This document shows positions 1 to 4,953 of a stretch of DNA of 64,000 nt, one piece after another. Position numbers and translations under genes: made by a program. Origin of the DNA: Nitrospirales bacterium (GTDB lineage: Bacteria > Nitrospirota > Nitrospiria > Nitrospirales > UBA8639); contig OY820905.2 in assembly GCA_963555755.3 (NCBI GenBank), forward strand, positions 1,120,001 to 1,184,000. Reading direction: 5' to 3'. The first letter of the stretch is position 1, and each line of letters starts with the position of its first letter. The notes beneath the pieces are model-generated. The model was given only the letters and a program-made list of their open reading frames with translations. It was not told the DNA's origin and searched no databases.

Positions 1-41
1 ATTGGCAATTTTCCAAACACCTTTGAAAAATCAAAAGATTA

Positions 42-220
42 GGACCTGAGAGCAAATACCTCGGACAATATCGCGCCAAGATTTGGGGCACATTTGGACG
101 GAACGATTGAGAAAAACCCGAGGCCTAGCACAGCTATGGTGAGGGTTTTTCGATTGAGGCCCGTTCAAAGGTGGCCCGAAGATTGGATGCGAGATGTCCA
201 AGTTATTTTCTCTCAGGTCC
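42..220. mobile_element. MITE-like repeat family A, copy 1
   Basis: TIRs GGACCTGAGAG...CTCTCAGGTCC, TTA on both sides; near-identical copies at 12625 and 14064. Confidence 0.85.
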
Positions 221-294
221 TTAGAGTACGAAGGGTCATTCTATGCCTTCGGAAAAAGGCAGGTCAAGGACGCAACATCATGAAATATAAAGGG

Positions 295-2198
295 CAGGGC
301 TATTTCATATTAAAGTGTAACTTTATAGATAATAAGGAATAATCGATTTAGGCTGGCTTTTTCTTTTCGTTTACGGCATACTCTTTTGCATGCCAGACGA
401 ATCGCCAAGCGGACAGCCGGACATTGATCTGAGGCAAGTCGTGGTTCGCCCAATTGTCCGAGACGAAAAGGACGCCTTCAAGACCCTTCTCGACAGACAC
501 CACTACCTCGGTCATGCCCCGCTGATTGGCCAATCGATACAATATCTCGCCTGTGTGCAGGATCGCTGGCTGGCCTTGCTGGTGTTTGCGGCGGCGGCCC
601 TCAAATCGAGACCGCGAGACCACTGGATCGGCTGGCCCCCCTGTTTTCAATGGCAACGACTCCATTTACTGGCCAACAACACCTGGTTTCTCATGCTGCC
701 GGGCTGTTCGCAAAAGAACCTCGCCTCGAAAGTCCTGTCGCTCTGCGCGAAACGGATCTCGGCCGATTGGCAACTGTACCACGGCTACCCCTTGCTCCTC
801 TTAGAGACCTTCGTCGATCCTGCCCGCTTCACCGGGACCTGCTATCGGGCCGCCGGGTGGCACGAGCTCGGTCTGACACGAGGGTTTCGCAAGTCGAACA
901 CGTGTTATGTTCAGCATGAGAGACCGAAGCGCATCCTAGTCGTGCGGCTGCATCCCCAAGCCCGAGAGATCCTTGCACGCCCGATGCTTGATCAGCCCTA
1001 TCAGAAAGGAGAAGCGCCTCAGATGAGATTGAATACAAAACAGACGGACTCCCTCTTTACGTATGTGGTGCAGCTGACCGATCCCCGCCATTTGCAAGGG
1101 CAACGGCACACCCGACGCGCCCTCACGGCGATCATGTTCTGTGCCACCTTGTGCGGCGCGCGCGGCTATGAAGCGATCTCGGACTGGGCCCAGCAGTTAT
1201 CGCAGCCGATGCGCAAGCGGCTAGGCTGTACTCAGCGAGGGGGGCGCTACCTCGTCCCGAGCCGCAGCACTCTTTACCGCTTTATCACGGCCGTCGACCC
1301 CTGTGAAGTCGATACCCTGCTCGGCCGGTGGCTGGACACCTTCGGCGGGGAGGATCAGGGCATTGCCATTGATGGGAAGACCATGCGGGGGACGTCGAAG
1401 GTCCCAAGCGAACAGACCCACGTCCTCAGCGCCGTCACCCATCAAGCCGGGCGCCACCTCACCCAAAAAAAGTTCACTCCAAGACCAATGAGATCCCCTG
1501 CGTGCGGCCCCTGTTAGATGCGCTCGAGATCGCAGGGAAGGTGATCACGGCGGATGCGCTCCTCACCCAGAAAGAGATTGCCGAGTACCTGGTGCACGAA
1601 CGCGGCGCCGACTTCGTCTTCACCGTCAAGGGAAACCAGCCCACCTTGAAGCACGACATTGAGGCCTTAGCGTTGCGAGCACGCCGGTGCGATTATGCCA
1701 CCACCGAGAAAGGCCATGGGCAGATCACGACCCGCAGGATCTGGTGCGATGACTCCCTGAATGCCTATGTCAACTTTCCTCATGTCCAGCAAGTCTTCTG
1801 CATTGAGAGGGAAGTGACGCATCTCAAGCAGGGCCTCACGACCGTCGAAGCGGTCTGCGGTGTCACGAGTCAGTCCAAAGACAAGGCGGGGCCGAAGACC
1901 ATCCTCTCGCAAAACCGAAAGCATTGGAGTGTGGAGAATAAGCAGCATTATGTGTTGGACGTCACCTTTGATGAAGACAGGAGTCAGATACGAAGTCTCA
2001 ATGGCCCAATGGTCATGACCTGTCTGAGACGCTATGCCATCAGTCTCTTACGCCTGAAAGGCTACACCAATATCGCGCAGGCGTGTAGACTGCTCTGGGG
2101 CAAGCCCCATTTAGCCATCCGCATGGCCCTGCCCTGAAAAAGAGCGCACAAAAAACCTCATGGAATCCCTTGCTTATAAAAAGAATGAAATGGCCCTG
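295..2198 (+). mobile_element. ISAs1-family insertion sequence, copy 1 (1904 bp)
   Basis: TIRs CAGGGCTATTTCAT / ATGAAATGGCCCTG; 10-bp TSD ATATAAAGGG (285-294, 2199-2208). Confidence 0.95.
390..2137 (+). CDS. DUF4338-domain + ISAs1 DDE transposase, joined by a -1 frameshift at A_AAA_AAG (1466-1472)
   Basis: ORF1 has HHYLG, NLASKVLS, ETFVDPARFTGTCYRAAGW then DPR and IAIDGKT; the -1 frame gives KTNEIP, ITADAL, VKGNQP, RKHWSVEN, LDVTFDED. Confidence 0.88.
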
Positions 2199-2208
2199 AT
2201 ATAAAGGG

Positions 2209-4112
2209 CAGGGCTATTTCATATTAAAGTGTAACTTTATAGATAATAAGGAATAATCGATTTAGGCTGGCTTTTTCTTTTCGTTTACGGCATACTCTTT
2301 TGCATGCCAGACGAATCGCCAAGCGGACAGCCGGACATTGATCTGAGGCAAGTCGTGGTTCGCCCAATTGTCCGAGACGAAAAGGACGCCTTCAAGACCC
2401 TTCTCGACAGACACCACTACCTCGGTCATGCCCCGCTGATTGGCCAATCGATACAATATCTCGCCTGTGTGCAGGATCGCTGGCTGGCCTTGCTGGTGTT
2501 TGCGGCGGCGGCCCTCAAATCGAGACCGCGAGACCACTGGATCGGCTGGCCCCCCTGTTTTCAATGGCAACGACTCCATTTACTGGCCAACAACACCCGG
2601 TTTCTCATGCTGCCGGGCTGTTCGCAAAAGAACCTCGCCTCGAAAGTCCTGTCGCTCTGCGCGAAACGGATCTCGGCCGATTGGCAACTGTACCACGGCT
2701 ACCCCTTGCTCCTCTTAGAGACCTTCGTCGATCCTGCCCGCTTCACCGGGACCTGCTATCGGGCCGCCGGGTGGCACGAGCTCGGTCTGACACGAGGGTT
2801 TCGCAAGTCGAACACGTGTTATGTTCAGCATGAGAGACCGAAGCGCATCCTAGTCGTGCGGCTGCATCCCCAAGCCCGAGAGATCCTTGCACGCCCGATG
2901 CTTGATCAGCCCTATCAGAAAGGAGAAGCGCCTCAGATGAGATTGAATACAAAACAGACGGACTCCCTCTTTACGTATGTGGTGCAGCTGACCGATCCCC
3001 GCCATTTGCAAGGGCAACGGCACACCCGACGCGCCCTCACGGCGATCATGTTCTGTGCCACCTTGTGCGGCGCGCGCGGCTATGAAGCGATCTCGGACTG
3101 GGCCCAGCAGTTATCGCAGCCGATGCGCAAGCGGCTAGGCTGTACTCAGCGAGGGGGGCGCTACCTCGTCCCGAGCCGCAGCACTCTTTACCGCTTTATC
3201 ACGGCCGTCGACCCCTGTGAAGTCGATACCCTGCTCGGCCGGTGGCTGGACACCTTCGGCGGGGAGGATCAGGGCATTGCCATTGATGGGAAGACCATGC
3301 GGGGGACGTCGAAGGTCCCAAGCGAACAGACCCACGTCCTCAGCGCCGTCACCCATCAAGCCGGGCGCCACCTCACCCAAAAAAAGTTCACTCCAAGACC
3401 AATGAGATCCCCTGCGTGCGGCCCCTGTTAGATGCGCTCGAGATCGCAGGGAAGGTGATCACGGCGGATGCGCTCCTCACCCAGAAAGAGATTGCCGAGT
3501 ACCTGGTGCACGAACGCGGCGCCGACTTCGTCTTCACCGTCAAGGGAAACCAGCCCACCTTGAAGCACGACATTGAGGCCTTAGCGTTGCGAGCACGCCG
3601 GTGCGATTATGCCACCACCGAGAAAGGCCATGGGCAGATCACGACCCGCAGGATCTGGTGCGATGACTCCCTGAATGCCTATGTCAACTTTCCTCATGTC
3701 CAGCAAGTCTTCTGCATTGAGAGGGAAGTGACGCATCTCAAGCAGGGCCTCACGACCGTCGAAGCGGTCTGCGGTGTCACGAGTCAGTCCAAAGACAAGG
3801 CGGGGCCGAAGACCATCCTCTCGCAAAACCGAAAGCATTGGAGTGTGGAGAATAAGCAGCATTATGTGTTGGACGTCACCTTTGATGAAGACAGGAGTCA
3901 GATACGAAGTCTCAATGGCCCAATGGTCATGACCTGTCTGAGACGCTATGCCATCAGTCTCTTACGCCTGAAAGGCTACACCAATATCGCGCAGGCGTGT
4001 AGACTGCTCTGGGGCAAGCCCCATTTAGCCATCCGCATGGCCCTGCCCTGAAAAAGAGGGCACAAAAAACCTCATGGAATCCCTTGCTTATAAAAAGAAT
4101 GAAATGGCCCTG
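2209..4112 (+). mobile_element. ISAs1-family insertion sequence, copy 2 (tandem with copy 1)
   Basis: Same TIRs and length; flanked by GATATAAAGGG (2198-2208, 4113-4123); differs from copy 1 at two positions I could see. Confidence 0.93.
2304..4051 (+). CDS. DUF4338 + ISAs1 transposase (frameshifted), copy 2
   Basis: Same as copy 1 except NNTRFL instead of NNTWFL. Confidence 0.88.
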
Positions 4113-4131
4113 GATATAAAGGGTTACTGTA

Positions 4132-4160
4132 TTGACAGCAGGACCCCTCCTTAGTATTAT
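4132..4160 (+). promoter_or_regulatory. sigma70-like promoter
   Basis: TTGACA-17 bp-TATTAT upstream of the 4444 gene. Confidence 0.6.
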
Positions 4161-4275: not shown

Positions 4276-4432
4276 GGGCTCGCGCAAAAATAACTTCCCA
4301 TGTTTGGGCGTCGATCCATCCAGTCTGGCAGCGTTGCTCGTCCTTTCCATACGAGGAGTATGCGCAATCCTCGCGCCTTGCCAGACAGGCATCTCAGCGC
4401 TCAAACATGGGAAGTTATTCTTGCGCGAACCC
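4276..4432. mobile_element. MITE-like repeat family B, copy 1
   Basis: ~30-bp TIRs GGG(C/T)TCGCGCAA(A/G)AATAACTTCCC; TAA duplicated on both sides. Confidence 0.85.
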
Positions 4433-4443
4433 TAAGGAGTATA

Positions 4444-4953
4444 ATGATGAAGACGTCTACCCAGAAATTTGACCGAAATTGGCTTGCCTATCTCATGGAT
4501 TCTCTGGTGAATTCTGGTGCCATGCCGAGTTGGGAAGCCACAGACTACTTGACGTCGAATCTTATTGGCGAAGCGCCAAACACCCAACTCCATGAATCCA
4601 AGTCACCCTATGAAACAATCCAACAATTTCTACACCGTGTCTATGGACCAATCGTCGAAGCCGCGTCCCGTTCAGTCTATCTCCCCCAAGAATCCATGAT
4701 CCACATGTTCACCGATATCAGTGTGATGGGAAACTCGGCCGTCTTAGTCGTCTACTTTCCCGGACACAATAAACCTCACCAACTCCTGCTCCTCGATGGC
4801 GTCAAAGCCTGGGATCTGATGTTTCAAGACACTGAAGCATTCAACACCTGGGCCCAGGAACGATACACCTGGATCACCGATGCCTTAAAAGCCGTCAGCA
4901 TCGACTCCATGTTCCAGGAACCCGCCGAAGTGTCCATGGCCTTAAGTTCCTAA
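4444..4953 (+). CDS. hypothetical protein
   Basis: ATG preceded by TAAGGAG; the longer upstream ORF start is MITE sequence. Confidence 0.7.
   Translation: MMKTSTQKFDRNWLAYLMDSLVNSGAMPSWEATDYLTSNLIGEAPNTQLHESKSPYETIQQFLHRVYGPIVEAASRSVYLPQESMIHMFTDISVMGNSAVLVVYFPGHNKPHQLLLLDGVKAWDLMFQDTEAFNTWAQERYTWITDALKAVSIDSMFQEPAEVSMALSS

Follow-up and report, generated by a model that had tools for sequence, protein, structure and literature searches.

The window analysed here, 64,000 nucleotides of a contig from a Nitrospirales bacterium (OY820905.2, positions 1,120,001 to 1,184,000), carries near its start two tandem copies of an insertion sequence that differ from each other at 2 positions (Table 1). 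The element has a DDE transposase match, terminal inverted repeats and a target duplication, and belongs to the ISAs1 family (NCBIfam NF033564; Pfam PF13808 with PF01609). A first-pass annotation had read ORF A as an ISAs1 transposase fused to a DUF4338/Mom-like domain. Pfam and NCBIfam matches confirm the fusion, and the motifs HHYLG, NLASKVL and TFVDPARFTGTCYRAAGW on which the reading was based are all found in this 375-aa frame, where the Pfam DruA/DUF4338 match spans amino acids 14-167 (E 1.3e-26). The transposase call holds only in part, as ORF A includes the first catalytic Asp and no other. On ORF A, NF033564 matches amino acids 247-363 (model 3-118) with 56 bits, alone below the cut-off of 70, and on the next frame (1502-2137) it matches model positions 129-314 with 136 bits (E 1.2e-39). 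The DDE_Tnp_1_assoc region of ORF A likely binds the element ends. ORF A is likely the main product of the element.

Table 1. Features of the two tandem ISAs1 copies and their target in the window.
Feature	Position	Strand	Remark
Target-site duplication, 10 bp, left copy	285..294	+	recurs at 2199-2208 and 4114-4123
ISAs1 element copy 1, 1,904 bp	295..2198	+	ends common to 39 near-full genome copies
Left terminal inverted repeat, 14 bp	295..308	+	13/14 positions pair with the right repeat
ORF A, 375 aa: Mom-like GNAT, ISAs1 N-terminal domain, first catalytic Asp	390..1517	+	
Mom-like GNAT domain, aa 14-196 (Pfam DruA/DUF4338)	429..977	+	structural match to Mom 8BV8
Codon 99	684..686	+	Trp in copy 1, Arg in copy 2 (2598-2600)
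DDE_Tnp_1_assoc, aa 225-315 (Pfam, E 2.7e-17)	1062..1334	+	transposase N-terminal region
First catalytic Asp, D328, IDGK motif	1371..1373	+	the same in all 112 aligned proteins
A_AAA_AAG slippery heptamer, predicted programmed -1 frameshift	1466..1472	+	in 39/39 copies
ORF B, -1 frame, second Asp (1553) and Glu (1934)	1466..2137	+	
Right terminal inverted repeat	2185..2198	+	pairs with 295..308
Target duplication separating the two copies	2199..2208	+	
ISAs1 element copy 2	2209..4112	+	Arg99; ORF A 2304-3431
11-bp duplication of 2198-2208	4113..4123	+	
Sigma-70-like promoter TTGACA-17-TATTAT, 11/12 consensus matches	4132..4160	+	starts 19 nt past right end

The genome holds 39 near-full copies of the element, 32 of them at 99.5% identity or above and 7 at 85-96%. 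An exact target duplication of 9-11 bp flanks 27 of the 36 copies that have both ends; in one further copy the duplication is offset by one base, and 8 have none. The element is recently active, intact and multi-copy, and copy 2 is likely the later insertion, into the target already used by copy 1. Public RNA-library contigs, which are not in themselves proof of transcription, cover the element end to end with no indels; such contigs drop rare variants and are uninformative on level, strand and slippage. Beside the element, window positions 6-221 form a palindromic stretch with inverted arms of 27 bp and 22 bp, and miniature repeats of 100-300 bp number in the hundreds in the genome. Behind the target promoter, positions 4300-4953 hold a 217-aa ORF with no Pfam, NCBIfam or PADLOC match.

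The ISAs1 family typically has one uninterrupted transposase ORF. In the present element the heptamer A_AAA_AAG sits in frame shortly ahead of the ORF A stop, and a -1 slip at this site is predicted to yield a transposase of ~582 aa with all three catalytic residues. The same arrangement recurs in a survey of 79 related loci from species genomes (from the best 80 of 523 matches, some of them from the same genome): the C-terminal part lies in the -1 frame in 58 of the 73 loci having both parts, and A_AAA_AAG occupies the equivalent site in 57 of the 79, from many taxa and several phyla. The other loci were scored as having a TmCn run (10), a different site (2) or an in-frame arrangement (2), or were broken or unscored (8), with two loci misfiled by the site-scoring rule (L073 is an in-frame readthrough and L049 has a T5C5 site). 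The TmCn run is located ~104 codons past the first Asp and requires a +1 shift, which fits T5C5 transcriptional slippage. According to the accessible text of PMC5009743, slippage of this kind occurs in Roseiflexus IS630, and A_AAA_AAG is the shift site of E. coli dnaX. A further clade, seen at the protein level only, stops ~8 codons past the first Asp at a Lys run. All slip sites seen precede the catalytic Glu and follow the N-terminal domain, and a conserved 3' hairpin was absent by a rough shuffle (median z 0.2 in 56 loci, 2 of them below -2). The frameshift as a GNAT-specific device is ruled out by GNAT-less ISAzs22, which is split as well, at a T4C6 site, and by multi-copy in-frame fusions, among them a 611-aa GNAT-ISAs1 fusion with 13 copies in one genome. 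An unsplit ISAs1 was found in 1 of the 201 genomes of a phylum-wide sample.

The N-terminal domain was modelled with AlphaFold2 from the Arg99 copy (copy 2) and 112 sequences; mean pLDDT was 76.5, mostly 75-95 across amino acids 11-200 and low after amino acid 320. When the model was compared with 48,161 chains, Mom of phage Mu (8BV8) ranked first (Z 14.2, rmsd 3.2, 161 residues aligned), with the next GNAT at Z 12.6, a margin of 1.6, and Foldseek likewise placed Mom first (E 7.6e-8), followed by the tRNA acetyltransferase TmcA (E 2.4e-6). Most viral matches had no name; a named Mom ranked 9th. The GNAT fold and the resemblance to Mom that had been proposed from the letters are thus borne out, in that two structure searches with a predicted model rank Mom first among solved structures and the residue pattern of Mom is recovered in the domain by alignment. 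DUF4338 has already been described as a GNAT (PMC10853773, in the text available).

Mom (PF25680, phage Mu) places glycine on N6 of SAS adenines in a Gly-tRNA-dependent reaction and thereby blocks restriction. The available portion of PMC13219725 states that its activity needs H58, Y59, R111, S124, D149, R151 and Y159, and an HTH-like insertion is described there and in the excerpt of bioRxiv 861617 as essential for activity. Aligned pairs between Mom and the domain are H58/H38, Y59/Y39, N121/N110, S124/S113, D149/D143 and Y159/Y152, the last three of the S, D and Y type being found in a profile comparison as well. Conservation at these positions across 338 related domains is high (H38 in 335, Y39 in 322, S113 in 335, D/E143 in 332 and Y152 in 336). 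R99, present in 336 of the 338, was left unaligned by MAFFT and matches R111 of Mom by spacing and strand position only, and it is likely the equivalent of this catalytic residue; R146 (285 of 338) lies one place off R151. The domain has the Mom-type N-x-x-S where the usual GNAT loop is G-x-G. The HTH-like insertion (175-209 in Mom) is absent, the alignment showing gaps and the model a short beta-hairpin at amino acids 166-175.

At the sequence level the two proteins are far apart, with an identity of 14%, a profile comparison probability of 3% and an E of 3.8 for the family HMM against Mom, and a family-profile sequence search of solved structures returned 2 chance matches only. Neither window copy reaches the Pfam Mom cut-off of 27.1 bits; relatives score 25.3-25.5 bits and one in-frame ISAs1 fusion 28.1. 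The ESM Atlas clusters are all DruA-named, and one has Mom in 11% of its members. In eight comparisons dN/dS was 0.17-0.28 for the domain and 0.09-0.23 for the transposase parts; the domain is under purifying selection, like the transposase. So the domain would work, if at all, like Mom; it is not a formal member of the Mom family, nor is it a Druantia DruA.

Searches with a 190-aa query, clustered at 50% identity, gave 6,518 clusters at E <=0.001 and 3,287 at E <=1e-10. Each of the 120 listed relatives that exceed 657 aa (120 of 271) has a transposase domain, of the IS50/Tn5 type (78), other DDE_Tnp_1 (33), IS701 (5), IS66 (2) and ISAs1 (2); the IS-type labels were checked with NCBIfam for 27 of the listed relatives. 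The domain is a minority trait, matched in 2 plasmid records against 850 for the transposase and in no phage record. Five domain-bearing IS kinds occur in this genome, namely the flagged element, a second ISAs1 (1 copy), an 806-codon IS4-type fusion (~12), an IS50-type fusion (2) and an IS66 (14). In ISAs1, IS4, IS50 and IS701 the domain is fused ahead of the transposase; the IS66 of this genome has it as a separate gene upstream, and other IS66 elements have it at the C-terminus. On a quick tree of the 89 domains (of 338) that remained after redundancy filtering, IS types cluster (11 label changes vs 44.9 shuffled), which indicates that the links between domain and IS type are old; two rows whose ISAs1 label comes from the locus number (L018_p0_0 and L073_m1_0) are probably neighbouring elements.

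Several of these carriers have features of their own. The IS4-type element (C1:3276802-3279382 and ~11 other copies; 2,581 bp, 7-bp duplication) encodes a 110-aa N-terminal region without a Pfam family, followed by the GNAT and finally the transposase, and often lies inside GC-rich miniature repeats. The IS66 element (C1:996882-999294 and 13 other copies; 2,413 bp, 8-bp duplication) sits in AT-rich targets, with no separate TnpA/TnpB ORF of at least 120 codons seen, and its order of domain gene and transposase is the same at locus L088. Two ~300-aa IS-type GNAT proteins (loci L084 and L086, genomes G047 and G052), with no transposase recognised in their 3.5-kb loci, are possible stand-alone or domesticated forms. 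A 620-aa protein (P0272) joins the GNAT and an ISAs1 N-terminal domain to a D12-class adenine methyltransferase, possibly by read-through into a neighbour. A GNAT-less ISAs1 of this genome (L111:1399-2754; C1:85527-86450) is a single gene in one frame with ~80 extra N-terminal residues, next to a gene that by resemblance we take to be an IS1595-like transposase.

Copy 1, the copy first flagged, has Trp at the near-invariant position 99. This R99W change is found in 9 of the 39 copies, 8 of the 9 being identical, and these occupy nine separate sites, each with an exact 9-10-bp duplication; the Trp99 allele is present in a public RNA-library contig as well. It follows that a copy can jump without activity of its own domain, or else that the 30 other copies provide this activity. 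Two further nonsynonymous variants have likewise reached 9 copies, which suggests that short-term selection is weak here and that the weight of R99W is modest. The natural Arg99/Trp99 pairs in the genome offer a ready control for function.

The domain probably modifies DNA in some way. We would put at about even the chances of a more specific reading, the leading one here, in which it is a Mom-like passenger, made mainly as the short product, that acylates DNA adenines and shields element-bearing DNA from restriction. Most ribosomes would stop at 1517 to give a 375-aa GNAT plus DNA-binding protein, and a -1 slip at A_AAA_AAG would add a small amount of the 582-aa transposase. The GNAT would transfer an acyl group, possibly donated by a charged tRNA as in the Mom reaction, to adenines in DNA, with the fused DNA-binding part replacing the helix-turn-helix insertion of Mom that is missing from the domain. 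The resulting mark would protect the DNA carrying the element from restriction enzymes and would be common to all copies in the cell, so that R99W copies could still spread; target choice and frameshifting would belong to the ISAs1 part and not to the GNAT. The R99W lineage, in nearly a quarter of the copies (9/39), counts against this reading. Against an anti-restriction role stands the scarcity of the domain in collections that favour other taxa, where 2 of 72,556 plasmid records (ISAs1 transposase in 850) and 0 of 50,697 phage records have it; a control scan of viral contigs gave 0 loci.

A domain that is fused ahead of the transposase in four IS types, is kept joined to the DNA-binding part in the short product by the position of the slip sites and is without Mom's own DNA-binding insertion could also act in cis, marking adenines at the ends or promoter of its own element for transposition control or target immunity. 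We regard this as unlikely. The first-pass annotation had likewise raised action on the element's own ends, and a need for it is weakened by the nine R99W copies with intact duplications at different sites, and further by the IS66 elements, in which the domain is a separate upstream gene or C-terminal. Moreover, one genome holds >20 full-length copies of ISAs1 elements without the GNAT. Target immunity is contradicted by Arg99 copies that stand in tandem (C1:89417/91331 and 987418/989331). As wild-type copies could complement the R99W ones in trans, action in cis is weakened rather than refuted.

Slightly less likely still is a substrate other than DNA, with the domain acylating tRNA or a host protein and serving as a mild toxin, an addiction factor or a counter to an anti-transposon factor. 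Fold alone cannot reveal the substrate, as the authors of the Mom work state; TmcA and protein acetyltransferases come close behind Mom in both structure searches, and the spread of R99 loss in the genome would fit relief from a cost. However, the residue pattern is that of Mom, including N-x-x-S where GNATs usually have the G-x-G loop, and the element is filled by its two frames.

The Pfam match and the description of DUF4338 GNAT domains fused to DndF defence proteins (PMC10853773, in the portion available) could instead point to a mobile anti-phage gene like Druantia DruA, and a mark on host DNA could serve self/non-self discrimination. This reading is improbable. The annotation's match to DUF4338/DruA stands, and the defence role of the Druantia kind that came with it is weakened. 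The domain covers positions 50-221 of the 297 in PF14236, whereas four DruA-type proteins of the same phylum run from 2 or 3 to 295 or 297, lack HHY, N-x-A-S and E-T-F-V-D and match the IS-domain profile at E 0.002 or worse. PADLOC gave no match for the three proteins tested, and the element holds transposase frames only, with no partner nuclease or helicase of Druantia type I. As Druantia-type DruA lacks the Mom-type residues, the Pfam label misleads. PF14236 matches occur in 14 of 151 genomes of the phylum of the window, 4 of which have a full-length DruA, and this genome gave 77 'DruA' candidates at first look, of which every family opened proved to be an IS. Pfam 'DruA' matches in such genomes are mostly insertion sequences rather than Druantia defence systems.

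The promoter to the right of copy 2 is likely the anchor of the insertion. Counted with the target duplication included, a TTG starts 18-19 nt past the right end in 12 of the 35 distinct flanks of the element (other offsets have a mean of 1.0 and a maximum of 3; p ~2e-10), and at least 7 of 9 consensus -35/-10 positions are matched in 9 of the 35 right flanks vs 1.3% in shifted windows; a TTG box is found in 6 of 39 left flanks. A shared anchor explains the tandem arrangement, copy 2 having likely re-used it with an 11-bp duplication. Four GNAT-bearing ISAs1 relatives have the box in 7/12, 10/16, 12/26 (left end) and 11/25 (right end) flanks, and the in-frame 611-aa element in 2/12 at 18-19 nt with 4 more at 17; these counts cover subsets of copies, with flanks from this genome (G000) and genomes G181-G184, G599 and G708, and the preferred end differs between elements. 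Two plasmid records hold too few copies for the comparison.

Such a pattern could suggest that the GNAT steers insertion to promoters, since a TTG -35-like box lies 18-19 nt from the insertions of the flagged element and of four other GNAT-bearing ISAs1. GNAT-less ISAs1, however, have the box too (9/20 and 5/5 right flanks), and it is absent beside the IS4 (10 copies) and the IS66 (12 copies) that carry the GNAT in this genome. A targeting role for the domain, very improbable in our judgement, is ruled out by the GNAT-less controls, and the targeting is a trait of ISAs1. Insertion at a fixed distance ahead of -35-like boxes appears general in this family; it is not stated for ISAs1 in the literature searched. 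IS1548, inserted 9 bp ahead of the lmb promoter (available text of PMC2875397), fits this preference. Insertion of ISAs1 upstream of promoters predicts effects on the expression of neighbouring genes.

That the fusion is a chance product, a pseudogene or an assembly artefact, as the interrupted frame and the substitution at a near-invariant residue of copy 1 might suggest, has a negligible probability and is refuted by the identical break in 39/39 copies and in 57/79 loci from many taxa, by independent public runs that contain the element without indels and by a dN/dS of ~0.2.

In 2009 Iyer et al. (Cell Cycle) reportedly linked Mom-like proteins to diverse bacterial transposases, and the supplements of that work and of Iyer et al. 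2013 may list ISAs1 fusions. The fusions are already annotated in databases, and the accessible text of the literature searched under DUF4338, DruA, Mom and ISAs1 contained no study of GNAT-transposase fusions. The IS-borne GNAT fusion is real and unstudied, and the Mom-transposase link itself was reportedly predicted earlier. We tentatively suggest, with a little less than even confidence, that a large family of putative Mom-like enzymes (3,287 clusters), long kept on at least five unrelated transposase types, writes an undescribed base modification on the chromosomes of bacteria, and that frameshifting makes the modifier rather than the transposase the main product. Should the domain indeed modify DNA, it would follow that the simplest mobile elements bring along an enzyme that marks DNA, and that a non-methyl mark on adenine, so far not looked for, is present in many environmental genomes.

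The element can be set beside several known systems. With the ISAs1 family it shares a DDE transposase, short inverted repeats starting with CAGGG and a 9-10-bp target duplication, but an extra N-terminal GNAT of 200 aa brings it to 1.9 kb, compared with 1.3-1.5 kb, and its transposase is split by the slip site, while the typical members found are single ORFs of 371-389 aa. IS with programmed recoding have the same motifs (dnaX-type A_AAA_AAG, T5C5) in the correct frames; the present family differs in that it draws on both mechanisms and on four or more alternative sites, with no conserved 3' hairpin. Promoters are targeted by ISLre2/TnGBS too (PMC3942029, in the text available). These elements and ISKra4 have unrelated Mutator-like transposases, and the distance here is 18-19 nt with a variable preferred end. 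Druantia type I DruA (PF14236, formerly DUF4338) is of the same Pfam family and shares the RDxWIGW region, yet it is ~400 aa long, covers the whole profile and is missing the Mom-type residues. Mom of phage Mu (PDB 8BV8) has the same GNAT fold, the H-Y, N-x-x-S, D and Y motifs and likely the same catalytic Arg; in contrast to Mom, the domain described here has no HTH-like insertion, has diverged to 14% identity and is fused to or placed beside a transposase, with an extra conserved R-D-x-W-I-G-W segment.
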